Shown: positions 2,777-61,887 of the stretch, piece by piece
Layout: the number at the start of each line of letters is the position of its first letter
Numbering within the stretch: position 1 is the stretch's first letter
Made by a program: the position numbers and the translations under genes
From: Minisyncoccota bacterium
GTDB taxonomy: Bacteria; Patescibacteriota; Minisyncoccia; Phycocordibacterales; Phycocordibacteraceae
Assembly: GCA_018062445.1 (NCBI GenBank)
Contig: JAGOSG010000002.1
Coordinates: 60,674 to 124,673, forward strand
Direction: 5' to 3'
DNA: 64,000 nt
The notes under the pieces: generated by a model
Database searches by the model: none
Told to the model about the DNA's origin: nothing
What the model saw: only the letters and a program-made list of their open reading frames with translations

Positions 2777-2813
2777 GACACAGTCTTACCAGCAAAGTGC
2801 GCTCTCAGAGCTC

Positions 2814-4524: not shown

Positions 4525-4672
4525 TTAAAATCTAGAGTATTTTCGGAAACCCGCTTTCGAACCGAGGAGAGTGATTTTTGAAGCGAGACGCAAGCTGGAA
4601 AACGAAGAATATCAGAGATATTTTGAGTTCGAAGCGTAGTGTCGTAGCAAAAAATCACTCTTCGCAGAGCCG
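4525..4672 (+). promoter_or_regulatory. structured divergent intergenic region (long-range inverted repeat) upstream of the aguB-like gene
   Basis: cgaggagagtgattttt (about 4563-4580) pairs with aaaaatcactcttcgcag (about 4643-4660), enclosing roughly 60 nt with internal stems; lies between divergent starts at 4423(-) and 4675(+). Confidence 0.25.
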
Positions 4673-4674
4673 GA

Positions 4675-7717: not shown

Positions 7718-9175
7718 CATGGAATTGTTCCACGACCAGCTTCCGCTAGCCGTGCCTTGTTACAACTTACTCCCTGTTACCGAGCTTACCGTAGACCGTG
7801 ATAAACACGGGCGTCGGGTCCTCCCGGCTCCCTTGAGTTGATGGGCGGTGAGTACAAAATTCGAGAACGTATTCACCGTAGTATAGCTGACCTACGATTA
7901 CTAGCGATTCCAGCTTCAAGAGGTCGAGTTGCAGACCTCTATCCGTACTGAGGAGGCGTTTTGGGATTTGCTCCACCTTACGGTATTGCTTCCTTTTGTC
8001 GCCCCCATTGTATCACGTGTGCAGCCCAGGGCATCAGAGGGACATGCTGATCTGGCGTCATCCCCTCCTTCCTCTCCCGTGAGGGAGCAGTCTCGTCTGA
8101 CATATAAAACAGACAACGGGGGTTGCGTTCGTTTCCCCACTTAAGGGAACAGCTCAAGCCACGAACTGACGACGACCATGCATCACCTGCCATACACCCT
8201 CGAAGGCTCCCAATGTTTCTACTGGGATGCAGTATGGTTTCAAGCCCTGGTAAGGTTCTTCGTTTACCGACGAATTAAGCCACATGATCCACCGCTTGTG
8301 CGAATTCCCGTCTATTCCTTTGAGTTTTAGTCTTGCGACCGTACTACCCAGGCGGTTCCCTTAACGCGTTAGCTACGCCACGAAGAGGGTCGATACTCCT
8401 CATAGCTAGGGAACATGGTTTAGGGCGTGGACTACAAGGGTATCTAATCCTTTTCGCTACCCACGCTTTCGTGCCTCAGTGTCAGGAATGTCCTAGTATG
8501 CTGCCTTCGCATTCGGTGTTCCCCATGATATCAACGGATTTCACCCCTACACCATGAGTTCCACATACCTCTTACATCCTCTAGTTTTACCGTTTCCCCC
8601 CGAGCCTCGGAGTTGAGCTCCGAGAATTTAAAGGAGGACTAATAAAACCACCTACGCACCCTTTACGCCCAGTAATTCCGGATAATGCTTGGGGCCTCTG
8701 TATTACCGCTCCTGCTGGCACAGAGTTAGGAGCCCCTTATTCATGAGGTACTGTCAAAACTTCATCCCTCATAAAAGGTGTTTACGTCCCGAAGGACTTC
8801 ATCCACCACGCGGCGTCGCTCCGTCAGACTTTCGTCCATTGCGGAAGATTCTCGACTGCGGCCTCCCGTAGGAGTAAGGACCGTATCTCAGTTCCATCGG
8901 TGGGGGTCAGCCTCTCAGCTCCCCTAAACGTCATAGCCTTGGTGAGCCATTACCTCACCAACTAGCTGATATTACGCAGGCTCCTCCTAGAGCGAATTGC
9001 TCCTTTACACCTTAGTGACTATCGAGAATTGCGCCATCTTTCGATGGAATATGCTCGACTCTAGGGTAGATTCCTACGTGTTACTACCTCGTCTGCCGTG
9101 GGTCTAAACCCACTCGACTTGCATGCCTTATCCACGCCGCCAGCATTCATCCTGAGCTAGGATCAAACTCTAATT
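7718..9175 (-). rRNA. rrs: 16S rRNA (about 1.46 kb)
   Basis: 5' end AGAGTTTGATCCTAGCTCAG (revcomp of 9151-9172). 530-loop region GTGCCAGCAGGAGCGGTAATAC (revcomp of about 8700-8722). 3' end ...GTAACAAGGCACGGCTAGCGGAAGCTGGTCGTGGAACAATTCC (helix 45 with GGAA loop conserved). ORF-track ORFs 7767-8871 are spurious. Confidence 0.85.
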
Positions 9176-9607
9176 TAAGATCTCATGCCTCCAATTGAAG
9201 GGCACGAAATCAATACACGGAACAGAAGAAAAAGAAGAAAATCTTTTATCTTCGGATCTTTTGATTTCTTGGCTCTTGATTACTACTTACTTTTTTGTGT
9301 TTTACGATTGGCTCCTATGCTAGTCGTAAAACTTACTGGTCTTCGTACTTTTACGTACGTATTCAATTTTCAAAGATCTCTGTGGTATTCGGGCTTACGC
9401 CCTCACACGACTGCACTCGCTCGGAAATGAAAAATAAATTTTCCTTCCCCTCACTCGCTTGTCGATAAAAAAAGCCGAAGCTTTTTCTTTACTCCGGCAT
9501 ACGGGTGAATCGTCTTTCGTTGAATCAGTTTGTTCCCATATGACAAATATAACCGCATGCCACAGCAAGCGTTTGTCTATACTACTCCCCCGCCCCAAAG
9601 CAGTCAA

Positions 9608-12082: not shown

Positions 12083-13456
12083 CTATTTTCCTAAGCCATT
12101 ACCGAATAAGAAATGTGCTGCCTTTGAGGTAGACTTGCCAAATCCAAGGGCAAGCAACAATGTTCTCGTTACCGTAACAGCAGTAAACATTGAAACGAGG
12201 ACACCAATGATGAACACGAGCGCGAAACCTTTAATCACCGCAGTGCCACCAAGCCAGAACAAAATAACGCCAGTGATGATTGATGAGAGGTTTGAATCGC
12301 TGATCGATGACCACGCACGCCTGAATCCTTCCCGTATTGCTTCACCGAGAACCTTCCCACTCTTCAGCTCTTCTTTCATTCTTTCAAAAATAAGAATATT
12401 GGCATCAACTGCCATACCAATAGAGAGAATGAATGCAGCGAGGCCTGCGGTTGTAAGTGTTACTGGAATGAGCTTAAAGATAGCGAGGTTCAAGGCAACA
12501 TAGAGTGACAGTGCAACGACTGCAATAACCCCAGGAAGTCGGTACCAAAGAATGAGGAAAAGCGCGACGAGCCCAAAGCCCCAGAGGCCTGCATCCACAC
12601 TTTGCGTTAGCGCCTTCTCACCGAGCGATGCGCCAATAGTCTGAGAAGACACGAGCTCAATTGGCACTGGCAGGGCTCCGAAGTTTAGATTGCGGACCAA
12701 TTCACGAGCCTCATCTGGAGTAAAGGTACCTGTAATATTTGCCTCTCCGTTTGGAATAGCTTCTTGAATGACTGGCGCTGAAATAATTACATCGTCGAGA
12801 AATATGGCGAGTACCTTACCAACATTTTCTGATGTAATGTCCTTGAAACGCTTAGCCCCTTCAGGATTGAAGGTTAATACAATAATTGGCTGATTGGAGA
12901 GTGTGCCTTCGCGACCTGACGAAAAATCAAGCGTTGCGTGATCAAGATACTGACCCGTAAGTCCCATATCTTCATAAATTTGAGCGCCTGCTTCATCGGT
13001 CTTCTGGAGGCGAAAATCGAGCGTTGGAGTTTGACCTATTGCTTTCACTGCCTCCGATAAATCAGTGACGCCCGGAAGTTCAACAATCAATCTATTGTCT
13101 CCACCACCGACAACACCCCCACGCTCTACCTGCACTAATGGTTCCGACACTCCAAAAATATTCACTCGCTTCTCAACAACATCACGCAAACTCTGCATTG
13201 CAGAATTTACATCACCAGAAACAACTTTTGATGTGTCGGCCCTATATAAAAGATGTGATCCGCCAGCCAAATCAAGACCGTAGCGAAATGGGAATTTTTG
13301 ACCCGCCTGCTCCGAGCTAACTACAAACCAACCAATACCCGCACCAATCAAAAGGAGGACAACTGCGACAATTCGTACTTTCCACATAATGCTCAGAGTA
13401 TGCCACGAGTAGCGTTTAGGGGCTAGGGGTGAGCGTTTAGAGAGGAAAACAGGCAA
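12083..13456 (-). CDS. secD: protein-export membrane protein SecD (true start probably the MWKVRIVAV Met near 13387)
   Basis: LDLAGGSHLLY signature and a periplasmic domain followed by 6 TM helices. Confidence 0.85.
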   Translation of the reverse strand: MPVFLSKRSPLAPKRYSWHTLSIMWKVRIVAVVLLLIGAGIGWFVVSSEQAGQKFPFRYGLDLAGGSHLLYRADTSKVVSGDVNSAMQSLRDVVEKRVNIFGVSEPLVQVERGGVVGGGDNRLIVELPGVTDLSEAVKAIGQTPTLDFRLQKTDEAGAQIYEDMGLTGQYLDHATLDFSSGREGTLSNQPIIVLTFNPEGAKRFKDITSENVGKVLAIFLDDVIISAPVIQEAIPNGEANITGTFTPDEARELVRNLNFGALPVPIELVSSQTIGASLGEKALTQSVDAGLWGFGLVALFLILWYRLPGVIAVVALSLYVALNLAIFKLIPVTLTTAGLAAFILSIGMAVDANILIFERMKEELKSGKVLGEAIREGFRRAWSSISDSNLSSIITGVILFWLGGTAVIKGFALVFIIGVLVSMFTAVTVTRTLLLALGFGKSTSKAAHFLFGNGLGK

Positions 13457-13501: not shown

Positions 13502-14326
13502 TTAGACGACCTTTTTAAGGGCAAGGAGATTTGTGAAAATTTCAACTACTGCAATAGGGCCAACACCTCCAGGAACTGGCGTAAAGACGGAAGCTTTCTC
13601 GGCGCACGCTGGGTCAGCGTCCCCCACTACCATTCCACCTGATTCACTTGTCCCGCCATCAATAATGACGACGCCTTCTTTAATCATATCTGTCTTCAAG
13701 AGCGCGGGAACACCTGCACCAGAAATAATAATGTCGGCATTTCTCGTTGCCGACGCAACATCGTCACCTTTTATAAGAGTGCGAACATTTGCACCAAGTC
13801 TTTCAAACAACACTCCTGCTGGTTTTCCTACCAATCTCCCTCCACCTATCAAAACCATGTTCGCTCCTTTTATCTCTACATTGTTTCGCTTCATGATGTA
13901 CCACATGGCGGCAGGCACTGGAGGAATGGCTGGAAAATTATTCTGCGCAAAAAGTTCAAACGCAGGGTCACTCAAGACATCAACATCGAGCATTTTAGGA
14001 ATGGCATTTTTTGCTATATCAACATCAATACCTGAAGGTAATGGGAGCTGAAGAATAACGCCATCATGCTTCCCCGCCTGCCTTGTTGCTTCCATTATCT
14101 CCTCAAGCGTTGCAGTCTCAGGAAGACGATACTCTTCTACGTGAATACCCAAATCCGTGGCGGCACGTTTTTTAATACCAACATACGACTGAGTCACTGG
14201 ACTTGTTGTCGCAATAACGACCCCTAAAGAAAGTGCGCCAAATTTTTGGCGTTCGATTTTCAGTTCTTCTTTCCGTTCTGCTGCAAGTTTGCGACCGTCA
14301 ATTATCATGCTGGAATCATAACTCAA
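13502..14326 (-). CDS. folD: bifunctional methylenetetrahydrofolate dehydrogenase / cyclohydrolase FolD
   Basis: 274 aa; ...VILQLPLP..., GGGRLVGKP, PVPGGVGPIAV. Confidence 0.85.
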   Translation of the reverse strand: MSYDSSMIIDGRKLAAERKEELKIERQKFGALSLGVVIATTSPVTQSYVGIKKRAATDLGIHVEEYRLPETATLEEIMEATRQAGKHDGVILQLPLPSGIDVDIAKNAIPKMLDVDVLSDPAFELFAQNNFPAIPPVPAAMWYIMKRNNVEIKGANMVLIGGGRLVGKPAGVLFERLGANVRTLIKGDDVASATRNADIIISGAGVPALLKTDMIKEGVVIIDGGTSESGGMVVGDADPACAEKASVFTPVPGGVGPIAVVEIFTNLLALKKVV

Positions 14327-20310: not shown

Positions 20311-20423
20311 TGTTCTGGCGATTAGCTACTCTCCCCTTTCGAGTACCATCGCTACAACCATGCTTAACTGCCGAGTTCGGAATGGGATCGGGTGTGACCA
20401 CGGCGTCAAATCACCAGAACACA
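20311..20423 (-). rRNA. rrf: 5S rRNA
   Basis: Revcomp: TGTGTTCTGGTGATTTGACGCCGTGGTCACACCCGATCCCATTCCGAACTCGGCAGTTAAGC...GATGGTACTCGAAAGGGGAGAGTAGCTAATCGCCAGAACA. Matches the 5S helix I / loop C consensus. ORF 20051-20401 is spurious. Confidence 0.75.
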
Positions 20424-20489: not shown

Positions 20490-23920
<3,431 letters not shown>

Positions 23921-23974
23921 GAGGAAGCTTGAAAACCACATAACGATTCTGTTCAATTACGAACAGTGATTTTT

Positions 23975-26279: not shown

Positions 26280-26488
26280 AAATTGAAAAAATCACGAAAA
26301 ACAGCAAAAATCTCTGTATAGTATAATTTAACGGTCGTTAAATTATACTATACAATCAAAAAAACCGAGGTGAGTGAGTTATGGAGAGAGTTGCAAAAAG
26401 GAATGGAACGGTGCGTAAGAGAAATTAGTGTGCGCAATAAAAAACACCCCGAGCGAGGTGTTTTTTATTTGAGAGTGACGAACAAAAA

Positions 26489-26851
26489 TTATGCGAGCTC
26501 AACCTTTCCGCCTGCTTCCTCAATTTTCTTCTTGAGAGCTTCAGCGTCTTCTTTCTTGACCCCTTCCTTCAATACTGAAGGAGCGGCATCAATAAGATCT
26601 TTTGCTTCTTTAAGTCCGAGAGCAAGAGCTTCTTTAACTACTTTGATGACGGCAATCTTAGTTGCGCCTGCATCAGTAAGTTTAATGGTGAACATTGATT
26701 TTTCTTCTGCGGCTTCACCTGCTACTGCAGGACCTGCCGATGCAACTGCGGTTGCAGAAACACCCCACTTCTCTTCTATTGCCTTGACGAGTGTATTCAA
26801 TTCAAGGACTGTCATCTTCTCTACTGCTTCAATAACTTGTTCTTGTGTCAT
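26489..26851 (-). CDS. rplL: 50S ribosomal protein L7/L12
   Basis: 120 aa; N-terminal dimerisation helix, Ala/Glu-rich hinge, C-terminal ...[23 protein letters not shown]...EAGGKVEL. Confidence 0.9.
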
Positions 26852-26865
26852 AAATTAATTTATTA

Positions 26866-26946
26866 GGTTTCAGCTGCCAGCTGTCGGCTTTCAGCTTGAG
26901 CTTCTGAATTAAAAGCTAAAAGCTGGCACCTGAAAGCTGGAAGCTT
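26866..26946 (-). repeat. intergenic repeat family A copy filling the rplJ-rplL spacer
   Basis: Minus strand: aagcttCCAGCTTTCAGGTGCCAGCTTTTAGCTTTTAATT...GCTGAAAGCCGACAGCTGGCAGCTgaaacc. Confidence 0.8.
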
Positions 26947-26948
26947 TA

Positions 26949-27479
26949 CTAGACTTTGGTTTTCCCTACCTCAGCAAGTGCTATCGCAAAACGCTGAATA
27001 GGAGAATTAATAACATTGACGAACATTCCGCGAAGTACTGCAACTGGAGGAATGGTAGCCACAGCAACAATTTCTGTTCCTGAGAGATACTTCCCTTCTA
27101 GTGCACCCCCCAGGAATACAAGCTTGCCCTTCAATTTCTTGACGAACGCTTGCAAACTTCTCGCTGGCGCTGTGATGTCGGATTCCACACCCTCTACTTC
27201 AGAGAGATAGGCAAAGGCGACTTCACCAGTTAATTCTGGCATCTCACCAGAAAAACCTTTCGCATCGAGTGCCTTCTTCAAGAGCGTCTTCTTAACGACG
27301 GTGTACTTCACACCCTCGCTTTTGAGTGCATCTCGAAGTTCGTTTACTTCATGAACTGTCACTCCTCTAAAAGAAACAAAGACAATAGACACTGCTTTCA
27401 GAAGTGCATCAGTTGTTCCCTTTAAGAGTGACTCTTTTTTTGCTCGAGTAATGGCCACGTTAGTTTTTGTTACGAACAA
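26949..27479 (-). CDS. rplJ: 50S ribosomal protein L10
   Basis: 176 aa; ...VSFRGVTVHEVNELRDALKSEGVKYTVVKKTLLKKAL... L10 family; directly upstream of rplL. Confidence 0.9.
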   Translation of the reverse strand: MFVTKTNVAITRAKKESLLKGTTDALLKAVSIVFVSFRGVTVHEVNELRDALKSEGVKYTVVKKTLLKKALDAKGFSGEMPELTGEVAFAYLSEVEGVESDITAPARSLQAFVKKLKGKLVFLGGALEGKYLSGTEIVAVATIPPVAVLRGMFVNVINSPIQRFAIALAEVGKTKV

Positions 27480-27886
27480 AGTGAGTTAGAAAATCTTACG
27501 CCCTGTTAAATCCCCGGAACGGGGACGCTTCGGAACGAAGCGTATTTAATAGGGTTAACAAAATCTAATCACTTCACTCAAGATTTTCTAAACACACGTT
27601 CTTACTAGGAGTTTCGAGGCGGATCGACCGCACCCTCGACTTCGGTAGGTGGCTAGTAGCCATTGACCCTTTCGGGACCCACTGTCTCCAGTCGTGCTAC
27701 GAGGTACAGTATCACGAACCTGCCAATATACGCAAACTCAGGCTCTCCAGATACCCAGACTTAGGCAGATTTCGCTGCAACTCCAAATACAGTCAAAAAT
27801 AGGAAGCTAATAAGAATGATGACTGAAAAAGCGAGGAGAAACCGAAAAAATCCCGGTGTAAAAAACTTTTTCATGTAATTTTTACT
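27480..27886 (-). promoter_or_regulatory. structured 5' leader of rplJ-rplL (L10-leader-like autoregulatory region); promoter somewhere within
   Basis: 400-nt untranslated leader with nested hairpins at 27501-27556: ccctgttaaat-CCCCGgaaCGGGG-a-CGCTTCGgaaCGAAGCG-tatttaataggg. rplK/rplA are not upstream, so this is an independent transcription unit. Confidence 0.4.
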
Positions 27887-28669
27887 TTATTGTGGAAGTC
27901 GTGCGATCTCTGCTCCGATCGACTCTACATGCGCAACATCATTTTGCTCTCGAGCTATTGTGAGTGCCTTCGTAAATGCATCACGAGCTTTTACGGTGTC
28001 TCCAGTATCACGGTAGTACCCACCAAGCATTACTAACGGGTCAGGGTTTGCAGGAAATTTCTTTGATGCTGATACTAGAATATCTACAGCTGAGGTTGTG
28101 TTTTGCTTGTAGAGATAGCGATAGAGTTCGTGAAGTTCGAAGTACGGTGTTATTGAGTTTGGATTTGCTTGAATGGATTGCTTAAAATAACTCTCCGACT
28201 TTGGGAAATCTTTCAAATCAAACTTATAGAGTTTGCCGAGATTGTCGTACGCTGTAGAAACTCCTGGAGCTGGAACTACCTTCAAGAGAAACTCCCATAC
28301 ACCAATTGCTCCTTCGTAGTCGTTTGCACTATGGTACAGAACGCCAAGCGTAAACCAATCATCCGCACGATTTAGATCTTTCTTTAAGCGAGCCAGTACC
28401 ACATCAGCATTCTTTTGAATTGCAGTCCGAGCTACCTCTGGCACCGATGCACCAAAGTGAATCCCCCGCTCAAGACTTGGTGCCAAGTCTTTTATTTGTA
28501 CCTCCGGCTCAAGTTCGATGGTGTAATTGGGAGTAGTAGTTGCCCCATCGAAATTTATAGCAACACTTGCTTCTGGATTTTTTTGTCTAGAGGCAAAATA
28601 AGCAATACCAACAAGAACACCAATGACAACAAGAACGCCTGTAACAAATAATACTGTTTTTGATTTCAT
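27887..28669 (-). CDS. membrane-anchored TPR-repeat protein
   Basis: 260 aa; N-terminal TM helix; repeated W/Y-LG-Y-A-G-A-P helical motifs (ADDWFTLGVLYHSANDYEGAIGVWEFLLK..., AYDNLGKLY...). Confidence 0.55.
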   Translation of the reverse strand: MKSKTVLFVTGVLVVIGVLVGIAYFASRQKNPEASVAINFDGATTTPNYTIELEPEVQIKDLAPSLERGIHFGASVPEVARTAIQKNADVVLARLKKDLNRADDWFTLGVLYHSANDYEGAIGVWEFLLKVVPAPGVSTAYDNLGKLYKFDLKDFPKSESYFKQSIQANPNSITPYFELHELYRYLYKQNTTSAVDILVSASKKFPANPDPLVMLGGYYRDTGDTVKARDAFTKALTIAREQNDVAHVESIGAEIARLPQ

Positions 28670-39081: not shown

Positions 39082-39657
39082 ATGTCTGTACTTTCATACA
39101 ACGAAATCATTCCTAAGAAAATAATTGTCCACGAAGGACAGCCTTTTGAAGTACTTTCTTCGCACGTATTTCGCAAACAACAACGAAAGCCTGTAAATCA
39201 AACAAAACTCAGAAACTTGAAAACTGGGAAAGTGCTTGAAATATCATTTCACCAAGCGGAAACCGTACTGGAAGCAGACATGGAAAAGCGCTCAGCAAAA
39301 TTCATATACAAAAATCGTGGTGAAGCGTGGTTTACCGATCCAGAAAATCCAAAAGATCGTTTTGTGGTAACCGAGGGGATTCTTGGAGAAAACGGGCAGT
39401 ATCTGAAGCCTGATTTGCTCGTGGAGCTATTGGTATGGAATGAAGAAATCATTGGCGCGAGGTTACCAATAAAAATGGAATTCAAAGTGGTTGAGGCTCC
39501 CCCATCAGTCAAAGGCAATACTGCGCAAGGTGGTACAAAACTAGTAACACTCGAAGGTGGAGCAACGGTAAATGTTCCGATGTTCATCAACGAAGGTGAT
39601 ATTGTGCGCATCAATACCGAGACTGGAGAATACAATGAAAGAGTTGAGAAAGCATAA
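39082..39657 (+). CDS. efp: elongation factor P
   Basis: 191 aa; KOW-like N-domain; C-terminal ...GGTKLVTLEGGATVNVPMFINEGDIVRINTETGEY; tip-loop region reads FRKQQRKPVNQTKLRNL. Confidence 0.85.
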   Translation: MSVLSYNEIIPKKIIVHEGQPFEVLSSHVFRKQQRKPVNQTKLRNLKTGKVLEISFHQAETVLEADMEKRSAKFIYKNRGEAWFTDPENPKDRFVVTEGILGENGQYLKPDLLVELLVWNEEIIGARLPIKMEFKVVEAPPSVKGNTAQGGTKLVTLEGGATVNVPMFINEGDIVRINTETGEYNERVEKA

Positions 39658-39980: not shown

Positions 39981-40433
39981 TTAAAATGGAATATCGTCAG
40001 GGCTTATTTCTTCGGCAGGATACTCGATATCGGGACCTTTGTCACTCCCTGCCTTACCAGGCTTCATTGGAGCGCCGTCACCGCGCACTTCGTCGCTTCC
40101 CCCGCCTCCGGTCTTCGAGCCAAACTGAACGCGCTCTGCAACAATTTCTGTTCGATACTGCTTTGCGCCATCTTTGTCCCAAGAACGAGTCTGAAGTCGG
40201 CCTTCAACCAAAACTTGCTGACCTTTTTTCAAGTACTGAGCACAGGTTTCTGCCTGACGACCAAACACAACAATGTTATGAAACTCTGTTGCCTCTTTCT
40301 TCTCACCATTCTGATCTTTCCATGTACGATTTGTTGCAACACCGAAGGAAGAAACATTCGCACCAGATGGGAGCGCTTTTAACTCTGGGTCGCGAGTGAG
40401 GTTTCCTGCAATGAAAACTTTATTGAGATACAT
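39981..40433 (-). CDS. ssb: single-stranded DNA-binding protein
   Basis: 150 aa; OB-fold N-terminus (VFIAGNLTRDPELK...WHNIVVFGRQAE), Gly-rich tail ending ...DDIPF. Confidence 0.9.
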   Translation of the reverse strand: MYLNKVFIAGNLTRDPELKALPSGANVSSFGVATNRTWKDQNGEKKEATEFHNIVVFGRQAETCAQYLKKGQQVLVEGRLQTRSWDKDGAKQYRTEIVAERVQFGSKTGGGGSDEVRGDGAPMKPGKAGSDKGPDIEYPAEEISPDDIPF

Positions 40434-40480: not shown

Positions 40481-41050
40481 CTACTCAGCAACCTTTGCGT
40501 CTTCTGTAGCAATACTTTCAAGAGCTTGATCGAGGGCGACCTCAGACATTTCGCCTCCCACTTCAGCCTCTCGTTTTGGCTTATCAATAGAGCCTGATGG
40601 GCCTACAACTGCACCACTCAAAGCTGCTGCTACCGCCTCTCTGTCGGTTACTACGATGAGTGAGCGGAGGATTGATGGGTTTGCATCCAATGCTATTTTT
40701 ATGCGAGCAATTGCTTCACGAGGAGCCTCAAAAGCCATCCAGCCAAAGTATGCGCCGTTAAAATTCGTCAATTTACCGTTTACACGCTTTGCGATTGTGT
40801 ATGCGAGAGCAATGTTTGAAGGAAATCTGTCCCCGACAAAAGTAACACCCTCTCCCTTGAGAGTTTCCATAATCCCCTGAACCGCTACCGTAACTTCCTC
40901 CTCAGAGAGCGTTGGCAACAGGTGATAGCCTACTTCATAGACATTTGTGCGGACATCATCTCCTTCATCTGAAAGAGCTGGAACTCCAGCCAAATCTTCT
41001 TCCAATATCTTTGTTTCCATTGTCCGAAGAGCGTACCATGGCTCGCCCAT
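40481..41050 (-). CDS. rpsF: 30S ribosomal protein S6 (with N- and C-terminal extensions)
   Basis: Core ...NVYEVGYHLLPTLSEEEV...GWMAFEAPREAIARIKIALDANPSILRSLIV matches the S6 fold; gene order rpsF-ssb-rpsR. Confidence 0.7.
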   Translation of the reverse strand: MGEPWYALRTMETKILEEDLAGVPALSDEGDDVRTNVYEVGYHLLPTLSEEEVTVAVQGIMETLKGEGVTFVGDRFPSNIALAYTIAKRVNGKLTNFNGAYFGWMAFEAPREAIARIKIALDANPSILRSLIVVTDREAVAAALSGAVVGPSGSIDKPKREAEVGGEMSEVALDQALESIATEDAKVAE

Positions 41051-55300: not shown

Positions 55301-56560
55301 TTATACAAAGGACTCAGGAATAGGAAACTGCCCCGCAAGCTCTTTTACTTCTTCATGCACCGCACGCTTTGTATCCGCACTATCTTTATTTTTCAGCGTT
55401 TGAATCATGAGCTCAGCAACGCGCGCGCACTCCACCTCTTTAAATCCACGAGTCGTTATTGCGGGAGAACCAAAGCGTATACCAGATGGGTCGAGAGGCT
55501 TCCTCGTATCCCCTGCAATTGAGTTCATGTTGAGTGTGATACCAACTTCATCCAAGACCGTCTGTGATTCTTTCCCTGTCACTCCCAAAGAGCCAAATAC
55601 ATCCGCAAGAATTAAATGATTGTCTGTACCTCCTCCAATCATACGCACACCTTCACGCCTAAGCACATGCTCCATTGCTTTAGCATTTTTCAAAATTTGC
55701 TCTGCATACTCTTGAAATGCCGCTGTTCCCGCCTCACCAAACGCAACCGCCTTCGCGGCAATCGTGTGCATGTGAGGTCCCCCTTGAATGCCTGGGAAAA
55801 TTGCTTTATCTATTTTGGTTGCGATTTCCTCGCTTTCACGCGTGAGAATAATGCCACCACGAGGCCCTCTGAGTGTTTTGTGTGTCGTTGAAGTAATAAT
55901 GTCGAAGCCGTCATCAAAGGGATTGCGGAGTGCCTTGCCAGCAATAAGGCCGGCAATATGTGCCATGTCTGCCATCGTTATTGCCCCCACTTCATGCGCA
56001 ATATCAACAAACTTTTTGTAATCGAGTGTGCGTGAATATGCACTGAATCCTGCAAGAATAATTTTAGGTTTCGTTTCAATTGCAACACGGCGGAGCTCAT
56101 CATAATCTATCTCCCCTGTTTCGGGATCTTTCATTTTGTAGGTAACAAACTTGTACACTTTCGCAGGCAATGTCATTGGGTGTCCATGCGTAAGATGTCC
56201 GCCGTGTGACAAGTCCATACCAAGAACTGTGTCACCAGGATTCAAAAGTGCAGCGTATACCGCTAAGTTTGCAGGTGCCCCCGAGTGAGGTTGTACGTTC
56301 GCAAATTTACAATTAAAAAGCGCCTTCACGCGTTCAATAGCGAGACGTTCCACAATATCCGTATACATCTGCCCTCCGTAGTAACGCTTTCCTGGGTATC
56401 CTTCTGAATATTTGTTTGTAAATACTGAACCATTCGCTTCAAGAACCGCACGGGATACATAATTTTCAGAAGGAATAAGCTCTAAGCCCTCTTCCTCTCG
56501 CTTTTGTTCGCCCGCTATCGCTGCTGCTACTTCTACGTCCTGTTTTTCTATGTATGCCAT
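55301..56560 (-). CDS. glyA: serine hydroxymethyltransferase
   Basis: 419 aa; ...GYPGKRYYGG..., ...TTHKTLRGPRGG (PLP-Lys), ...ANVQPHSGAPAN.... Confidence 0.95.
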   Translation of the reverse strand: MAYIEKQDVEVAAAIAGEQKREEEGLELIPSENYVSRAVLEANGSVFTNKYSEGYPGKRYYGGQMYTDIVERLAIERVKALFNCKFANVQPHSGAPANLAVYAALLNPGDTVLGMDLSHGGHLTHGHPMTLPAKVYKFVTYKMKDPETGEIDYDELRRVAIETKPKIILAGFSAYSRTLDYKKFVDIAHEVGAITMADMAHIAGLIAGKALRNPFDDGFDIITSTTHKTLRGPRGGIILTRESEEIATKIDKAIFPGIQGGPHMHTIAAKAVAFGEAGTAAFQEYAEQILKNAKAMEHVLRREGVRMIGGGTDNHLILADVFGSLGVTGKESQTVLDEVGITLNMNSIAGDTRKPLDPSGIRFGSPAITTRGFKEVECARVAELMIQTLKNKDSADTKRAVHEEVKELAGQFPIPESFV

Positions 56561-56564
56561 TGTG

Positions 56565-57296
56565 TTATTTCTTACCCTTAATAACTTTTAAAACAGTGTC
56601 ATAAATTTGCTCATGTATCTCTTCTCTCGGAAGAATACCATTTTTGTTTCCGCACTCAATCTTCTTCCAATTTCCTTTTTGGCTAATAAGTTTTAAGGCG
56701 CTTTTCTGCGCTGCCTCAAGATACTCTGCATCCCCTTCTACAATATCCTTTCCTCTGTGGGCATAGCGTTTTTTATCCTCTCGATCCTTATTCTTCAAAA
56801 GCTTCAATACCTCTTTCATGGGGAGATGGAGGTACACAATCAAATCAGGTCGCGGGAGCCCAAATACTCCATGCTCCATGGTGTCGAGCCACTTTAAAAA
56901 TGCGCGACGCTTCTTCGCGTCATTTATTTTTCCTCCCTGATGGAGCTGATTCGCCGACACATAACGATCAAGAACAACGGTTTTCCCTTCTTTGAGCCAC
57001 TTTTCCAATTTTTCTTTGGACTCAAAGCGGTCAGCTGCATACATAACTGAGGCAATGTATGGATCAATATGCAAAAAATCACCGTACTCTCCTGTGAGCA
57101 TTGCGCCTATAAAGTGCCCAAAGAAATTCTTGTAGTACTGAGGGAAATCGAGAGTCTCTATCTTCATTCCTTCTCGCTTTAACCGCGCAACCAAGAGCTT
57201 TGTTTGTGTTGCCTTACCTACCCCGTCGGTACCATCTATGACTATAAGTCTGCCCTTTTTACTCTTCATTATCCCCAGTATATCGTGAGCTTTCAT
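56565..57296 (-). CDS. tmk: thymidylate kinase
   Basis: 243 aa; P-loop LIVIDGTDGVGKATQ, DRY-like ...VLDRYVSANQL.... Confidence 0.85.
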   Translation of the reverse strand: MKAHDILGIMKSKKGRLIVIDGTDGVGKATQTKLLVARLKREGMKIETLDFPQYYKNFFGHFIGAMLTGEYGDFLHIDPYIASVMYAADRFESKEKLEKWLKEGKTVVLDRYVSANQLHQGGKINDAKKRRAFLKWLDTMEHGVFGLPRPDLIVYLHLPMKEVLKLLKNKDREDKKRYAHRGKDIVEGDAEYLEAAQKSALKLISQKGNWKKIECGNKNGILPREEIHEQIYDTVLKVIKGKK

Positions 57297-57338: not shown

Positions 57339-58166
57339 ATGAAGCAATACAATAACCTCCTCAAAAAAGTTTTAGAAGAAGGTGCCGACCGTGAGACTCG
57401 AAATGGTAAAACGCGCGCACTCTTCGGTCTTCAGATGCGCTTCAACATGGCGGATGGATTCCCTGCAGTCACTACTAAAAAACTTGCATTCAAAGCAGTG
57501 AAGAGCGAACTTTTATGGTTCATCGAAGGCTCGAATGATGATAACCGTTTGAAAGAATTAAATAGTAGCGAACGCACCATCTGGACTGACAATGCCGAAG
57601 CTCCGTACTGGGCACCAAAAGCAAAATTTCCCGGCGACCTAGGCCGGGTTTATGGAGTGCAGTGGAGAAAATGGCAAGGGCCAAACGGTAAGGTCGTCGA
57701 CCAACTTGCAGAAGTCATCGAGAAAATAAAGACGAACCCGACTGACCGCAGACTTATTGTGTCTGCATGGAACCCAGGCGAACTCGACCAAATGGCATTG
57801 CCACCGTGCCATATGTTCTTCCAGTTTTTCGTAGCCAACGGGAAGTTGTCGCTTCTTATGCACCAACGCTCATGCGATATGTTTCTTGGTGTTCCATTCA
57901 ACATCGCTTCCTACTCACTCCTTTTGGCAATGGTGGCACAGGTTACAAATCTTGTCCCTCACGAATTCGTACACTCGCTCGGCGACGCACACATCTATCA
58001 CGATCACTTGGATGCAGTGAAAGAACAGCTCTCCCGTGAACCCCTCGCTCTCCCAACACTTAAATTAAATCCGGTCGTAAAAAACATCAACGATTTCAAG
58101 ATGGAGGATATAGAATTAGAAAATTATCAGTCACACCCTCCGATTAAAGCTAAAATGGCGGTATAA
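57339..58166 (+). CDS. thyA: thymidylate synthase (ThyA)
   Basis: From the internal Met at 57339: MKQYNNLLKKVLEEGADRETRNGKTRALFGLQMRFNMADGFPAVTTKKLAFKAVKSELLWFIEGS..., ...ALPPCHMFFQFFV (catalytic Cys), ...SCDMFLGVPFNIASY.... The ORF-track start at 57204 would overlap tmk. Confidence 0.9.
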   Translation: MKQYNNLLKKVLEEGADRETRNGKTRALFGLQMRFNMADGFPAVTTKKLAFKAVKSELLWFIEGSNDDNRLKELNSSERTIWTDNAEAPYWAPKAKFPGDLGRVYGVQWRKWQGPNGKVVDQLAEVIEKIKTNPTDRRLIVSAWNPGELDQMALPPCHMFFQFFVANGKLSLLMHQRSCDMFLGVPFNIASYSLLLAMVAQVTNLVPHEFVHSLGDAHIYHDHLDAVKEQLSREPLALPTLKLNPVVKNINDFKMEDIELENYQSHPPIKAKMAV

Positions 58167-58170
58167 AAAT

Positions 58171-58866
58171 ATGGCACTTTCTGACAAAAAAATCCTCGAG
58201 CACATGAAAGCGGGCACGGTCGTTATTGAACCGTTCCAGCGTGAAAACCTCGCAACATCAAGCTACGATGTAACTTTGGGCGAATGGTATTTTAAAGAAC
58301 AACCACCTCAAGGCCACAAGAAAATCTACAACGTATATAGCAAATCAGATACTGAAATAGTTTGGGATACGAAGCCTCGTCGTGCCAAAACAGCCAAAGA
58401 AGAACTCAAGAATTTCAACTTCTCATTTGATGGTATCCGCCCTGACGACAAAGTCATTTTAATGGAGCCAGGCGAAACAATTCTTGCTCACACACAAGAG
58501 TTCATTGGTGGGAAAGACACTGTCACCACAATGATGAAAGCTCGCTCTTCAATGGGTCGTAACTTCATCAATGTGTGCAAATGCGCAGGCTGGGGAGATG
58601 TGGGATACACCAATCGTTGGGTCATGGAAATTTCAAACGCATCACAGCACTACATAATTCCTCTTGTCGTTGGTCGCAGAATCGCACAGATAGTATTTTT
58701 TGAAACTGGACCTATTCTTGCAGGTGACTATACAAAAACTGGTAAATACCAAACAACTACCGATGTCGCGAAGCTAAAGAAAACATGGAAACCTGAAACA
58801 ATGTTGCCAAAACTCTGGGCAGACCGTGACATCAAAAAGCACCACCCATGGCACAAGCAAAAATAA
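58171..58866 (+). CDS. dcd: dCTP deaminase (dUTPase superfamily; possibly bifunctional dCTP deaminase-dUTPase)
   Basis: 231 aa; ...LMEPGETILAHTQEFIG..., ...ARSSMGRNFINV...AGWGDVGY...RWVMEISNAS...GRRIAQIVFFE. Confidence 0.75.
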   Translation: MALSDKKILEHMKAGTVVIEPFQRENLATSSYDVTLGEWYFKEQPPQGHKKIYNVYSKSDTEIVWDTKPRRAKTAKEELKNFNFSFDGIRPDDKVILMEPGETILAHTQEFIGGKDTVTTMMKARSSMGRNFINVCKCAGWGDVGYTNRWVMEISNASQHYIIPLVVGRRIAQIVFFETGPILAGDYTKTGKYQTTTDVAKLKKTWKPETMLPKLWADRDIKKHHPWHKQK

Positions 58867-59336
58867 TTGCCATTGCTGCGATCGGCAAGAATCGGGGTTT
58901 GGGTAAGGATAATAATCTTATCTATAAGATCCCTGAGGACATGAAACATTTTCGCGATGCAACACTCGGACATCCAATTATTAGCGGGCGAAAGAATTTT
59001 GAATCAATGGGTAGAGCGCTCCCTGGACGACCAACTATTGTAGTAACGCGGGATACTTCCTATGCATACGGAGGTGTCACTGTAGTGCACACAATCGAAG
59101 ATGCTATAGCTAAGGCGCGAGAGCTAGATCAAGAAAAAATTTTTATTATTGGAGGAGGAGAAATATACAAAGCGGCACTCCCCTACACTGACACTCTCGA
59201 CCTCACACTTATCGATGACGAGAAACCAGCTGATGTTTTTTTTCCAGACTATTCAGAATTCACCAAAGTGATTTCTGAAGAAAAAAAAGAGCACGAAGGA
59301 ATTTCGTACTCTTTTGTGATTTTGGAGAGAAATTAA
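58848..59336 (+). CDS. folA: dihydrofolate reductase
   Basis: 162 aa; IIAIAAIGKNRGLGKDNNLIYKIPEDMKHFRDATLGHPIISGRKNFESMG..., ...IFIIGGGEIYKAALP.... Confidence 0.85.
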   Translation: MAQAKIIAIAAIGKNRGLGKDNNLIYKIPEDMKHFRDATLGHPIISGRKNFESMGRALPGRPTIVVTRDTSYAYGGVTVVHTIEDAIAKARELDQEKIFIIGGGEIYKAALPYTDTLDLTLIDDEKPADVFFPDYSEFTKVISEEKKEHEGISYSFVILERN

Positions 59337-59573: not shown

Positions 59574-59921
59574 CTTTATATACTACAGCACAAAAATATG
59601 TAAGTCAATAACACTATTTAAAATCAGCTGGGAACGAGATTAATTCCTATCTACAAGTGACAAATTGCAGTTAATGCACTCCTTCCGTGCCTTAAGACTC
59701 AATGCGGGATGCGCACCAAAGTACCTCCACACATGTTTACCGTTCTCTGACCGTTTGCTTAGACATCTTGATTCAGATTCTTCACTTCGACCCCTTCGAA
59801 CACCTACCCCCGAGGCCTCATGTGCTGATAGATTCATATACTTAGCAGTAAATAATAAAGCTGACTAATCACTCTAATAACTACCCTACGTATATATAAG
59901 TACTCCCCAAAAGATGGCTCG

Positions 59922-60662
59922 TCAACTTCTCTCCCCTTCACCTTTCTGCCACCCTACATTTTTCAAAAACGGCTCAAAGAGGTCTTCCTCTATAGTGGAA
60001 GAAAAGGAATCAGTACTTACATACTTAGAGTCCCCAATGAAAGGAGCGTTCCGAATACGAACAATCGGGGTCTGCTCATTCGCCTCCCCCATTACAAATG
60101 ACGCAGTTGCAGCGAGTGAGTCCGGAATATTTGTCTGACTTCCTCCTGACGGAGTACCAAGAATATCAATGCGATTTTTGTTGCTGAATAGTGGTTCAAA
60201 TCCCGCCCAAGCGAGCGCAATACCTACAACACCTTTTCGAAGAAACACACTCCGAGAGTCCGTCATGATGAGATATAAATTTTTGATGTTGTATGTCCTT
60301 TTGAACCATTGCAAAAGCTCCTCGGCAGACTTCTGCGGATTTTCTGGCCAGAGAACATAGTATTGCCCTAATGGGTCAATCCCCGCTGAGGGTATAAGAA
60401 TACCGTTCGTGATGGTATGCACCACTGCACCATCCCGCATGTCTTCACGTGGGATATACCATTCGGCCTCTTTTTTAACGAGTTCGTCTTTCTTGGAAAA
60501 ATTACGCTCCACACACCTGCCTTCAGAAATTGAAACAACCTTTGAAGAAATTGCCACGACATCGCCCTCCTCGAGCGTGAGTGTCGAAGCTTTTATTTTT
60601 GAAAACAAATCGTCCTTTGGTGGCTTGAGGATATCAATAGAAAATGCGGTGACTTCCATCAC
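59922..60662 (-). CDS. CofE-like protein (F420-0:gamma-glutamyl ligase family, PF01996)
   Basis: 246 aa; GDVVAISSKVVSISEGR, ...IPSAGID..., ...IMTDSRSVFLRKGVVGIALAWAGF..., ...ATASFVMGEANEQTPIVRIR align block-for-block with archaeal CofE. Occupies the slot immediately after rplK. Confidence 0.65.
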   Translation of the reverse strand: MMEVTAFSIDILKPPKDDLFSKIKASTLTLEEGDVVAISSKVVSISEGRCVERNFSKKDELVKKEAEWYIPREDMRDGAVVHTITNGILIPSAGIDPLGQYYVLWPENPQKSAEELLQWFKRTYNIKNLYLIMTDSRSVFLRKGVVGIALAWAGFEPLFSNKNRIDILGTPSGGSQTNIPDSLAATASFVMGEANEQTPIVRIRNAPFIGDSKYVSTDSFSSTIEEDLFEPFLKNVGWQKGEGERS

Positions 60663-60712
60663 CGCATTGTGCCAAAGCTAAACGCTAAACGCTAACCCCT
60701 ATACGCTCATCA

Positions 60713-61132
60713 TTACTTCACGTCAATGCCCATCGAGCGAGCGGTACCAGCAATAATCTTCATTGCTTGCTCAGTATCTTTTGTATTGAGGTCTGGCATC
60801 TTCTTCTCAGCAATTTCCTTGAGTTGTGCCTTTGTTATTGAACCTGCTTTTACTGTTGGAACCTTTCCAGAGCCCTTCTCCAAACCTGCCCATTTCAAAA
60901 GAAGTCGTGATGCTGGAGAAACCTTAACGATGAAAGTGAACGAGCGATCGTCCATGACTGAGATCTCAACAGGGAGAATGTCGCCCATTTGGTCTTGTGT
61001 TGCAGCATTGAACTGCTGAACAAACTGACCGATGTTAACGCCAGCAGGACCGAGTGCCGTTCCTACTGGAGGTGCAGGCGTTGCCTTACCACCTGGAACC
61101 TGAAGCTTAATTTTCTTTACTACTTTTGCCAT
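60713..61132 (-). CDS. rplK: 50S ribosomal protein L11
   Basis: 139 aa; [37 protein letters not shown]... canonical L11. Confidence 0.9.
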
Positions 61133-61147: not shown

Positions 61148-61690
61148 TTATATTTTCTTAACTTGCAAAAAATCGAGCTCAACTGGCGTCTCGCGACCAA
61201 ACATAGACACCAACACCTTCACCTTACCCTTCTCCTCATCAATTTCGCCAATGCGACCCTCCAAATCTTTGAAAGGACCATCTGCAACAATAACAGGCTC
61301 GCCAACAGCAAAATCAATCTTATGTTTTGCAATATCGGTGGACATGCGCTTAAAGAGAATATTCATTTCCTCTTCTGTCAAAGGCACGGGAGTCACACCG
61401 GAACCCACGAAGCCTGTCACACGAGGAGTATTGCGAACAATGTACCAACTTTCATCGTCAACAATCATGTCGACCAAGATGTATCCAGGGTAAATTTTTT
61501 CTTCAACGGTATTTCTTTTGCCACCCACCACTTTAATTTTCTTCTCGGTAGGAATGACCACATTGAAAATCTTGTCCTGCATGTTCAAGGAATCAATGCG
61601 TTGCTTTAAGTTACGGAGAACAGCATTCTCATATCCTGAGTATGTGTGCACCGCGTACCAACCTCGTGTTCCTTCTGTTTGTTTTGCCAT
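61148..61690 (-). CDS. nusG: transcription termination/antitermination factor NusG
   Basis: 180 aa; NGN domain [14 protein letters not shown]..., KOW ...[45 protein letters not shown]. Confidence 0.9.
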
Positions 61691-61695: not shown

Positions 61696-61887
61696 TTATT
61701 TCTTAAGAAGGATAAGTTGTTCTAGTCCTAATGTGAAAATGAAATCAAAAGCCCCAAGCATAAGGGCGACCGCGATAGAAATAACGATGACGAGCAAGGT
61801 ATAGAGAATTGCTTGATTTCGAGTTGGCCACGACACATGCGTGAGCTCATTTCGTACTGCCTTGATGTATTCAATGAATTTTTTCAT
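61696..61887 (-). CDS. secE: preprotein translocase subunit SecE
   Basis: 63 aa; ...[37 protein letters not shown]... single TM; upstream of nusG. Confidence 0.8.

Follow-up and report, generated by a model that had tools for sequence, protein, structure and literature searches.

The stretch of DNA analysed here (64 kb, referred to as the window) carries secE, nusG and rplK on its minus strand, next to the gene of a ligase-family protein and a set of folate and thymidylate genes. Gene identities derive from Pfam and NCBIfam profile scans, and the sequence covered consists of the window together with flanks at homologous genes, of up to 10 kb for the genome loci and for locus L154, and of 3 kb for the rplJ loci. 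The features of this region are the following:

61696..61887, minus strand: secE (PF00584, E=8e-17; TIGR00964, 52 bits for a cutoff of 27.55)
61148..61690, minus strand: nusG (TIGR00922, 204 bits for a cutoff of 135.7)
60713..61132, minus strand: rplK, encoding uL11 (TIGR01632, 179.5 bits for a cutoff of 141.85; both Pfam L11 domains)
60643..60668, minus strand: 11-bp hairpin, then UUUUCUAUU, a terminator-like site in which the ATG of the ligase gene is buried
59922..60659, minus strand: predicted CofE-fold gamma-glutamyl ligase, FolC2-like, 245 aa (PF01996, E=3e-30; TIGR04132, 184.4 bits)
58848..59336, plus strand: folA, dihydrofolate reductase, convergent with the ligase gene (PF00186, E=4e-48)
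58171..58866, plus strand: dcd, dCTP deaminase-like (PF22769, E=1e-31)
57339..58166, plus strand: thyA, thymidylate synthase (PF00303, E=5e-108; a called gene of 275 aa in L001)
56565..57296, minus strand: tmk, thymidylate kinase (PF02223, E=1e-19)
55301..56560, minus strand: glyA, serine hydroxymethyltransferase (PF00464, E=7e-151)
13502..14326, minus strand: folD, methylene-THF dehydrogenase/cyclohydrolase, a further folate-dependent enzyme (PF02882 and PF00763)

Two small ORFs are also found between the ligase gene and folA. The ligase ORF was initially listed as 59922-60662 (246 aa, GTG start), and the ATG at 60659 gives a protein of 245 aa. This ATG is almost certainly the true start, because the 245-aa form alone is called as a protein in public assemblies: an exact-sequence look-up matched it and returned no match for the 246-aa form.

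The canonical secE-nusG-rplK-rplA-rplJ-rplL block is broken in the window, as stated in a preliminary description of this DNA, the same-strand gene after rplK being an ORF of the PF01996 F420_ligase family and rplJ-rplL lying 33 kb away. About 26 species-level genomes of Parcubacteria repeat this layout, in which secE-nusG-rplK-ligase converges on folA-dcd-thyA, with tmk-glyA beyond, and the relatives carry the names Parcubacteria, Paceibacterota or Kaiserbacteria. Among 30 loci of the ligase clade, rplK lies upstream of the ligase gene in 26 and folA just 3' of it in 27, usually with dcd, thyA, tmk and glyA. In at least one relative, L154, the ligase gene is detached from folA and stands beside a gene for a vitamin-uptake-type transporter (Vut_1).

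By its sequence, the hairpin at 60643..60668 resembles a terminator or attenuator of the rplK unit. It is kept in the close relatives L005 and L007-L011, and canonical terminators occupy the gap between rplK and the ligase gene in the more distant relatives L027, L028 and L034. The hairpin may also serve for co-regulation. The preliminary description had placed a CofE-like gene in the slot of rplA, which is right as regards position; the conserved membership of the ligase gene in the folate/thymidylate cluster, the terminator or hairpin separating it from rplK and its other location in L154 indicate that it is not a functional occupant of that slot.

A CofE-fold ligase among folate genes

The best NCBIfam model for the ligase is TIGR04132 (“putative folate metabolism gamma-glutamate ligase”), whose score of 184.4 bits is below the cutoff of 350 and is twice that obtained with CofE models. 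The relatives behave likewise, with TIGR04132 scores of 173-295 bits among CPR and non-CPR members, none of which passes the cutoff. Identity to the nearest TIGR04132-like proteins is only about 35-40%, and a neighbour-joining tree recovers the ligase clade as monophyletic and sister to TIGR04132-like bacterial proteins, apart from archaeal CofE. A PDB profile search led to AfCofE (E=4e-19), the structures 2G9I, 7ULD and 2PHN being matched at E of about 4e-19, and the AF2 model of the ligase (pLDDT 84.9) reaches a TM score of 0.74 to 2PHN/7ULD.

Conservation reaches 90% or more over all 67 family members at G47, AGxD95, D134, RxG143, D165, D180 and MGExNExTP198. The metal- and nucleotide-site residues of AfCofE, reportedly D109, D150, T151 and E208 (Nocek et al. 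2007), align with D95, D134, S135 and E192 of the window ligase, positions that do not vary among 21 clade members and are conserved to 90% or more among the 67; the replacement of T151 by S135 is conservative. The resemblance to CofE noticed at first thus extends to the active site, where the conservation of the catalytic-core positions favours an active enzyme. Throughout the clade, the family-wide motif GIDESN is replaced by GIDP(L/F)G and a proper GGSQTN motif is present, so that the use of substrate or nucleotide may differ from that of the rest of the family. In L018, L022, L023 and L027, the ligase gene has beside it a second paralog, which keeps the canonical motif and could be the real FolC2.

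The folate-related enzymes encoded in the window are not accompanied by any FolC-like ORF of the Mur-ligase type within its 64 kb. Within the FolC2 family, FolC activity is known for Chlamydia CT611 only, from its ability to complement a folC mutant of E. coli (PMC1971073). Some Parcubacteria members of the ligase family are already annotated publicly under the FolC2-family name. The ligase is most likely a folylpolyglutamate synthase (FPGS) of FolC2 type belonging to a divergent subclade, and we infer folate to be its substrate. As a nucleotide- and metal-dependent gamma-glutamyl ligase, it would most likely add gamma-linked glutamates to (salvaged) tetrahydrofolate, which would keep the cofactor in the cell and in a form that ThyA, SHMT and FolD use well, and it would replace the unrelated FolC of the Mur-ligase type. 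An FPGS role, in retention of the cofactor, is likelier than a DHFS role because the window cluster is folate-using and not devoted to folate synthesis. The “different gamma-glutamyl/nucleotide-ligase role” suggested by the preliminary description is therefore retained in so far as it is not that of F420 synthesis; the role had already been named, as FolC2/TIGR04132. The cluster points to a folate-using, probably folate-salvaging metabolism with a non-canonical FPGS, and its location beside rplK constitutes a deeply conserved landmark of the lineage.

The competing explanation that survives best is that the ligase acts on a non-folate substrate, such as another pterin or deazaflavin-like cofactor, a small metabolite, a peptide or a ribosomal component, the folate link being one of neighbourhood only. 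The motif changes peculiar to the clade (GIDPxG for the otherwise universal GIDESN; GGSQTN), the TIGR04132 score below cutoff and the canonical-motif paralog adjoining in four loci would suit it, as would the location of the gene on the strand of rplK and not of folA, and, in L154, away from folA and next to the Vut_1 transporter. We nevertheless regard it as unlikely, since the convergent and nearly abutting pairing with folA persists in 27/30 loci over about 45% protein divergence, the closest family is the folate-linked one, terminators separate rplK from the ligase gene, and a vitamin-type transporter as neighbour equally suits the salvage of a cofactor.

Ribosomal protein uL1 and the L1 stalk

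That the window holds no L1-like ORF, as first described, was borne out by tblastn with E. coli L1, for which the best E value was only 0.24 (the query scores 226 bits against PF00687), and by Pfam scans, which found no Ribosomal_L1 among essentially all the non-overlapping ORFs of at least 100 aa of the window. L1 was likewise absent from all 154 loci checked, 153 related or comparison loci by tblastn and L154 among its Pfam-annotated genes, and rplA does not adjoin rplK in the window and 26 related genomes. No member of OD1-L1, a large subgroup of the Parcubacteria, is reported to carry the protein uL1, complete genomes included (Brown et al. 2015, as cited in PMC5220378; Tsurumaki et al. 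2022, PMC9297842), and most of this uL1-less group was reported to have a 16S rRNA devoid of the anti-Shine-Dalgarno motif (PMC9297842). The lineage of the window fits this subgroup, in agreement with the literature-based suggestion made at first. Two rRNA features bear on the comparison:

7718..7745, minus strand: 3' end of the 16S rRNA, read as ...GGAACAAUUCC, without the CCUCC anti-Shine-Dalgarno motif
21553..21656, minus strand: L1 stalk (H76-H78) of the 23S rRNA, from a MAFFT alignment to E. coli rrlH

The lack of a CCUCCU anti-Shine-Dalgarno sequence in the 16S rRNA of the window is a trait correlated with the uL1-less group. The window probably belongs to OD1-L1, and rplA would then be absent from the remainder of the genome as well; a literature search for a link between Kaiserbacteria and OD1-L1 returned nothing. 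The best explanation for the window is a tiny uncultured Parcubacteria (Paceibacterota, CPR) genome, from a lineage that lost uL1.

A deletion or decay of the L1 stalk mirroring the loss of L1 was considered and rejected: H76-H78 are of full length in the alignment, with compensatory changes in H77 and H78. Such a retained stalk fits a protein-free structure and, equally, an rplA gene located somewhere else. According to published work, the loss of uL1 and that of H78 do not coincide. Neither the folate cluster after rplK nor the retained L1 stalk was found in PMC5220378 or PMC9297842.

It could be argued that rplA has been relocated elsewhere in the genome, and not lost, as rplJ-rplL themselves did move, the stalk is intact, H77 and H78 included, with compensatory changes maintaining it, and the inspected sequence is part of a genome. 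This relocation appears improbable in view of the loss of uL1 described by two papers in a large subgroup with complete genomes, of the 16S rRNA without anti-Shine-Dalgarno motif common to the window and this subgroup, of the absence of L1 from the related and comparison loci examined, and of the published lack of coincidence between the losses of uL1 and H78.

The rplJ-rplL unit and its leader

The genes rplJ and rplL, displaced by 33 kb from rplK as initially reported, form a unit of their own on the minus strand (27458-26489), preceded by a conserved small ORF and a structured RNA:

27761..27874, minus strand: conserved hydrophobic ORF of 37 aa, between a TPR gene and the leader RNA, with tblastn matches upstream of rplJ
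27591..27700, minus strand: structured core of the rplJ leader, about 110 nt, with P1 (27697-27693 with 27598-27594), GGAGACAG, P2 (27681-27677 with 27650-27646), CCGAAG and a P3 hairpin (27639-27614)
26949..27458, minus strand: rplJ, encoding uL10 (PF00466, E=1e-16; GTG start at 27458 in an ORF spanning 26949-27479)
26489..26851, minus strand: rplL, encoding bL12 (PF00542 and PF16320)

The order rplJ-rplL-orf200-mscS is shared by about 80 metagenome loci, and the 37-aa ORF has tblastn matches upstream of rplJ in L074, L097, L077, L079, L125, L134 and others. The structured leader of 400 nt announced in the preliminary description was recovered in part, as the conserved core of about 110 nt; the 428-nt gap (27459-27886) also holds the 37-aa ORF and two GC hairpins, and its folding is only modestly better than that of shuffled sequences (z = -2.1). 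The proposed comparison with the Rfam L10_leader model (RF00557) gave no match at the Rfam gathering threshold, nor in positions 26300-28000 of the window at E values up to 10, and neither this model nor any other of Rfam matched in the window at that threshold or in 15 relatives at E up to 0.01.

The sequence core common to the window and its relatives is AGACAG...CCGAGG with P1 and P2, which is invariant in 24 aligned leaders and accompanied by covariation in P2. The window leader, GGAGACAG-P2-CCGAAG, can be set against AAGACAGUGAGG...CUCACUCAUCGAG in the window's own 23S rRNA, and the core mimics helix 42 of the 23S rRNA, a kink-turn-like L10 site. A covariance model (R1) built on the commoner leader subtype places the motif immediately ahead of rplJ in about 52 of the 80 loci; in its alignment, which was fitted to the model, 94% of the cells are paired, and compensatory changes are seen at 33 of the 34 pairs. 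R1 did not detect the window leader (5.4 bits), which represents a divergent subtype, and homology of the latter consequently rests on the shared core, on P1 and P2 and on the intermediates L074-L079 and L097. When all leader subtypes are aligned together (MAFFT and RNAalifold), only P2 is recovered. The known target of L10(L12)4 combines a kink-turn with UAA (PMC4538822). Most clade members carry this triplet in their P2 loop, as do L074 and L077, whereas UACUA and UCAAU take its place in the window.

The RNA offers a mimic of the L10(L12)4 site of helix 42, by its kink-turn and P2 loop, to which L10 may bind; the operon is probably repressed in this way by its own product, the L10(L12)4 complex. 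This conserved rRNA-mimic leader, missed by the current Rfam, is the freshest item of the analysis.

Overall reading and comparison with known systems

Taken together, gene identities, fold, conserved core residues, synteny, and RNA conservation and covariation, as established here, suggest that the rplKAJL-rpoBC block was broken up long ago in a uL1-less lineage. The secE-nusG-rplK unit would end at a hairpin or terminator, and the gene after rplK would be no ribosomal substitute but the outermost member of a ligase, folA, dcd, thyA, tmk and glyA cluster. To this reading as a whole, with a FolC2-type ligase in the folate cluster and an L10-mimic leader on rplJ-rplL, we assign a probability of about 0.65. 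A more far-reaching proposal is possible but rather doubtful: the rplK-adjacent ligases (GIDPxG, GGSQTN) could constitute a third, functionally distinct CofE/FolC2 branch with a substrate or nucleotide specificity unlike those of CofE and Chlamydia FolC2, for example a folate trapping coupled to vitamin uptake, together with an undescribed class of L10-site-mimic RNA located on rplJL after a conserved 37-aa membrane peptide. The broken operon is a real observation but is already largely explained, a missing L1 with an odd enzyme in its slot being mostly known CPR biology described anew.

[quoted passage not shown] These features, the conserved catalytic core and several public annotations as coenzyme F420-0:L-glutamate ligase would be in line with a genuine CofE making F420 polyglutamate. 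Such an activity is very improbable, as the preliminary description had anticipated: the ligase is 26% identical to CofE, fails all three CofE equivalog models (TIGR01916, 90.1 bits for a cutoff of 180.65; NF009809 and NF009810, 89.7 and 66.2 bits for cutoffs of 274 and 304), groups apart from archaeal CofE in the tree and has no F420 biosynthesis gene (cofC, cofD, cofGH/fbiC) among the Pfam-annotated genes of the window and of the L001 and L005 flanks, and an equivalent argument was made and tested for Chlamydia. A chimera of assembly or binning, conceivable for a metagenome-assembled genome, is practically dismissed by the base-for-base identity of the secE-nusG-rplK-ligase arrangement in four independent assemblies (NCBI GCA_020049755.1 and GCA_017992865.1, and two Logan runs), its presence in a relative (47-kb JGI contig, ligase at 89% protein identity), its repetition in about 26 species-level genomes and the even GC content along the window (0.43-0.49).

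The window resembles the uL1-less Parcubacteria (OD1-L1) by an rplK without rplA after it, the absence of uL1 from the 64 kb and from related loci, a 16S rRNA without anti-Shine-Dalgarno motif and unlinked rRNA genes with insertions, and no feature of the window contradicts this likeness. For this subgroup, the loss of uL1 has been documented since 2015; what is added here is that the L1-stalk rRNA stays intact, probably without its protein.

CofE-like FolC2 enzymes have been on record since 2007, and a literature search for the gamma-glutamyl ligase in CPR papers returned nothing. With FolC2 (Chlamydia trachomatis CT611; COG1478; TIGR04132), the window ligase has in common to be a CofE-family protein with clustered folate genes and no sign of F420 synthesis, to have TIGR04132 as its best-scoring curated model and sister group in the tree, and to conserve the catalytic core. 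It differs by a score of about half the equivalog cutoff (184 versus 350), an identity of about 35-40%, GIDP(L/F)G in place of GIDESN, and a folate-using cluster (folA/thyA/glyA) where that of Chlamydia is for folate synthesis (folP/folK).

Compared with the L10(L12)4 leader (RF00557; B. subtilis, E. coli; PMC4538822), the clade RNA escapes Rfam, has another overall architecture (P1-P4) and a small hydrophobic ORF ahead of it, the window copy being a further divergent subtype whose P2 loop lacks an exact UAA. Both are located directly upstream of rplJ, and the clade core, AGACAG-stem...stem-CGAG, parallels helix 42 of the 23S rRNA (AGACAGCCAGG...CUGGUCGAG); most clade members have a UAA in their P2 loop, and further hairpins follow downstream, possibly for attenuation. 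The rplJL leader could thus become a new RNA family beside the known one, which would improve the annotation of CPR genomes.

Gene order at rplK and at rplJ-rplL

Pfam and NCBIfam identities confirmed the claim of the preliminary description that secE-nusG-rplK is followed on the minus strand by a CofE-like gene instead of rplA, and the relocation of rplJ-rplL, 33 kb from this block, was likewise confirmed.

Genes of the two blocks in the window
61696-61887, minus strand, secE
61148-61690, minus strand, nusG
60713-61132, minus strand, rplK
59922-60659, minus strand, CofE-like ligase of 245 aa, 53 nt after rplK (PF01996 F420_ligase domain, E=3e-30)
26949-27479, minus strand, ORF of rplJ, true GTG start at 27458
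26489-26851, minus strand, rplL

The ORF finder places the ligase start one codon further upstream, on a GTG (60662); publicly called proteins show only the ATG form. An assembly artefact is excluded by the identical locus in GCA_020049755.1 (contig JAHZTO010000105.1, 144 kb), GCA_017992865.1 and two Logan assemblies, by the unchanged order in a JGI contig of a relative (89% ligase protein identity) and by the even GC content along the window.

A ligase profile scan of one genome per species retrieved 66 loci, annotated by tblastn with the window proteins, 30 of which constitute the window's clade (ligase identity 55-94%), under the names Parcubacteria, Paceibacterota, Kaiserbacteria and Patescibacteria. 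Within this clade, secE-nusG-rplK lies upstream of the ligase at 26 of 30 loci and a convergent folA downstream at 27 of 30, usually with dcd, thyA, tmk and glyA next. Departures from this order are mostly contig ends; the true exception (L020/L154) has its ligase between infC-rpmI-rplT and a vitamin-uptake-type transporter gene, Vut_1. In L154 (10001-11375; the relative's contig is 647 kb long), the ligase stands apart from rplK and folA and in convergent overlap with this PF02592 gene, which fits a cofactor uptake-and-trapping role. The order rplJ-rplL-orf200-mscS is kept down to 43% uL10 identity among 80 loci from a uL10 scan of metagenomes, followed by the 23S rRNA gene in L090 and L112 as in the window, and at none of these 80 loci was L11 or L1 found upstream of rplJ. 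The gene arrangement is ancient within the lineage. Between dcd and thyA, a locus with an 89% identical ligase protein (L005) carries an 89-aa GIY-YIG ORF (12605-12874, minus strand), which resembles a homing endonuclease of the free-standing kind, here placed within the thymidylate cluster.

The statement that the CofE-like gene occupies the rplA slot holds for its position and not for its function. An 11-bp hairpin (60668-60643), then UUUUCUAUU, lies between rplK and the ligase, whose AUG is buried in the hairpin; it is kept in the closest relatives, and textbook terminators are found in the same gap of more distant ones. Alignments of ligase and folA end at most about 25 nt apart or overlap at the clade loci, and the ligase is tied more tightly to folA than to rplK. 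The hairpin could be a terminator or attenuator, with little ligase made relative to uL11. In the simplest reading, rplA would have been lost, rplJ-rplL moved, and the folate cluster become the next neighbour of rplK.

Two small ORFs lie between ligase and folA.

Small ORFs of the ligase-folA gap
59640-59837, minus strand, 65 aa
59346-59573, minus strand, 75 aa

Common to both are a stretch G-x-(K/R)-H-x-W and, at the C-terminus, CxxC, so that a paralogous origin is possible. In L007 and L008 neither reading frame is interrupted, with substitutions showing no third-position bias; in the slightly more distant L010, L012 and L013 the region is missing or cannot be recognised, the gap being shorter or lacking recognisable similarity.

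Identity of the CofE-like ligase

Among NCBIfam models, TIGR04132 ("putative folate metabolism gamma-glutamate ligase") gives the ligase its highest score (184 bits, below the cutoff of 350), the three CofE equivalog models giving 66-90 bits, all far under their cutoffs. Neighbour joining of 67 family members, without bootstrap support, placed the window clade as monophyletic and sister to TIGR04132-like proteins of Alpha- and Gammaproteobacteria, Clostridia and other CPR, apart from archaeal CofE. The clade profile matched only Archaeoglobus fulgidus CofE in the PDB (E=4e-19), and the AlphaFold model (pLDDT 84.9) matched only 2PHN/7ULD (TM 0.74). The positions taken as Mn2+ ligands of the A. 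fulgidus enzyme, D109, D150, T151 and E208, align to D95, D134, S135 and E192 of the ligase, positions conserved family-wide together with an MGExNExTP motif. The active-site residues, whose loss the preliminary description had envisaged, are therefore kept, and since these core positions are conserved, the ligase looks catalytically competent.

The window also contains folA, thyA, glyA and folD, and this gene context supports a link to folate; no F420 genes were found among the Pfam-annotated genes of the window and of the homologous-locus flanks. A gamma-glutamyl role outside F420 synthesis, as proposed earlier, agrees with this absence and with the TIGR04132 score exceeding those of the CofE models; the role is not new, FolC2, to which TIGR04132 corresponds, being already named. 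According to a prediction by De Crécy-Lagard et al. (2007), a folate-clustered COG1478/CofE homolog substitutes for the absent FolC in Chlamydia (PMC1971073). Public annotations already give folate names to some Parcubacteria members ("putative folate metabolism gamma-glutamate ligase" and "dihydrofolate synthase / folylpolyglutamate synthase") and the name CofE to others.

We consider the ligase to be a FolC2-type folylpolyglutamate synthase, with a probability of roughly 0.6-0.65. That it acts on a substrate other than folate is unlikely, and would accord with the clade's GIDP(L/F)G in place of the family-wide GID-E-S-N, with its own GGSQTN motif, with an identity of only 35-40% to TIGR04132-like proteins, and with a second CofE-family paralog (35-36% identical, canonical GIDESN-type motif) beside the rplK-adjacent gene in four relatives.

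Second CofE-family paralogs
L018 1342-2070, minus strand
L022 8609-9331, minus strand
L023 8478-9371, minus strand
L027 11249-12043, minus strand

These paralogs score 200 bits with TIGR04132 and 140-159 with CofE models, and their neighbourhood suggests a division of labour, e.g. DHFS versus FPGS, or different substrates. FolC2-type CofE homologs are known biology, of which the ligase is a divergent new member.

Absence of uL1 from the loci read, and the rRNA genes of the window

The earlier observation that the window holds no L1-like ORF was borne out: tblastn with E. coli L1 (226 bits against PF00687) gave a best E of 0.24 across the window, and Ribosomal_L1 had no Pfam match among essentially all its non-overlapping ORFs of at least 100 aa. 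The same query matched none of 153 related and comparison loci, and Ribosomal_L1 is absent from the Pfam-annotated genes of L154. Loss of L1 in one Parcubacteria subgroup had indeed been reported: OD1-L1 owes its name to the absence of rpL1 from all members (PMC5220378), and Tsurumaki et al. (2022) confirmed the absence on 69 complete CPR genomes (PMC9297842). Because of this literature and of the synteny read in the window and homologous loci, we regard rplA as probably lost, and its relocation elsewhere in the genome as very improbable. Parcubacteria without uL1 are already known biology.

Most of the uL1-less group overlaps with lineages lacking the 16S anti-SD motif, and the lineages that lost uL1 are not the same as those that lost 23S helix 78 (PMC9297842). 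The window fits both trends: its 16S 3' end (...GGAACAAUUCC) misses CCUCC, and alignment to E. coli 23S reveals an entire L1 stalk, with H77 changed from GGUGG/CCACC to GACGG/CCGUU and compensatory changes at the base of H78.

The rRNA genes are unlinked, a CPR hallmark, with 11 kb of protein genes between 16S (7718-9178) and 23S (20496-23921), including those for SecDF, FolD, a glycosyltransferase and FtsW/RodA; 23S adjoins 5S (20313-20418). Another hallmark is the 23S length, 3426 nt versus a 2925-nt model, with about 130 extra nt near E. coli 292-399 (window about 23346-23585, minus strand) and an insertion of about 370 nt (20784-21156, minus strand) at E. coli position 2593/2594, the well-known insertion site of the Chlamydomonas group I intron Cr.LSU. 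This larger insertion contains no ORF of at least 100 aa and no Rfam group I match at the gathering threshold.

Elsewhere in the window, the bS6 ORF (40481-41050, minus strand) is long, 189 aa with the Pfam S6 domain only at residues 38-133, and ssb (39981-40433) follows, no rpsR being noticed alongside. A cluster of polyamine type, by its predicted products, spans 1397-6606, with genes for an Orn/Arg decarboxylase at 1397-2776, a member of the deoxyhypusine synthase family at 3314-4423 (minus strand), a carbon-nitrogen hydrolase at 4675-5562 and a PAD_porph protein of agmatine deiminase type at 5563-6606; EF-P is at 39082-39657. That a CPR bacterium has a homolog of deoxyhypusine synthase may merit a look.

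The leader region of rplJ

The gap of 428 nt upstream of rplJ (27459-27886) comprises three elements and not one RNA.

Elements of the rplJ leader gap
27761-27874, minus strand, 37-aa hydrophobic ORF, conserved protein upstream of rplJ (peptide MKKFFTPGFFRFLLAFS... / MKKFFTPGFFRFLLAFSVIILISFLFL...)
27591-27700, minus strand, structured core of about 110 nt
27543-27512, minus strand, two GC hairpins

The description of a 400-nt structured leader was right in substance, rplJ-rplL having their own leader, and overstated its structured extent (z = -2.1 for the whole gap against shuffles). The 37-aa ORF, with a motif FFxFLxGF, occurs in many relatives (L074 348-440, L097 2652-2762, L077 2765-2845, L079 2624-2707) and could encode a small membrane protein or an rplJ-rplL leader peptide. 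In L074, which among the metagenome loci is the closest relative, with 97% uL10 identity, an insertion of about 1.9 kb (478-2407) separates small ORF and leader core, which shows the region to be a rearrangement hotspot.

The core consists, in order, of P1 (GCACG/CGUGU), GGAGACAG, P2 (GUGGG(U)/(A)CCUAC) enclosing two small hairpins, CCGAAG and a P3 hairpin. The clade-wide motif is GAAGACAG-GCAGGC..UAAG..CCUGC-CGAGG, closed by P1, and RNAalifold supports P2 by covariation (CG 13, UG 6, AU 3 and UA 2 at one pair) and, for the subtype that is more common, yields a structure of four helices. A covariance model from 12 sequences found the motif on the correct strand directly upstream of rplJ at about 52 of 80 loci (E<0.01); in the alignment fitted to this model, 94% of cells are paired versus 77.5% in shuffles and 41-51% with slid partners, and 33 of 34 pairs have compensatory changes. 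The four-helix motif (P1, AGACAG/CCGAGG core, UAA-bearing P2 loop, P3, P4) occurs at L085 2856-2985, L140 355-483, L112 2856-2986 and about 50 others of L074-L153, with strong covariation, and no Rfam family matches it. The window copy belongs, with L074-L077, L079 and L097, to a divergent subtype that the 12-sequence model does not detect. The match to Rfam L10_leader (RF00557) considered earlier was found neither in the window leader (E up to 10) nor in those of 15 relatives (E up to 0.01).

The leader RNA is the item most worth further study. Its core resembles helix 42 of the window's own 23S rRNA (AAGACAGUGAGG...CUCACUCAUCGAG), the L10(L12)4 site. The published L10(L12)4 target in rplJ-rplL leaders, a kink-turn with an unpaired UAA, mimics 23S rRNA (PMC4538822); the window core shares this likeness to helix 42 but has no exact UAA, and judged from sequence and predicted folding, the leader RNA is plausibly a new variant of this known regulatory class.
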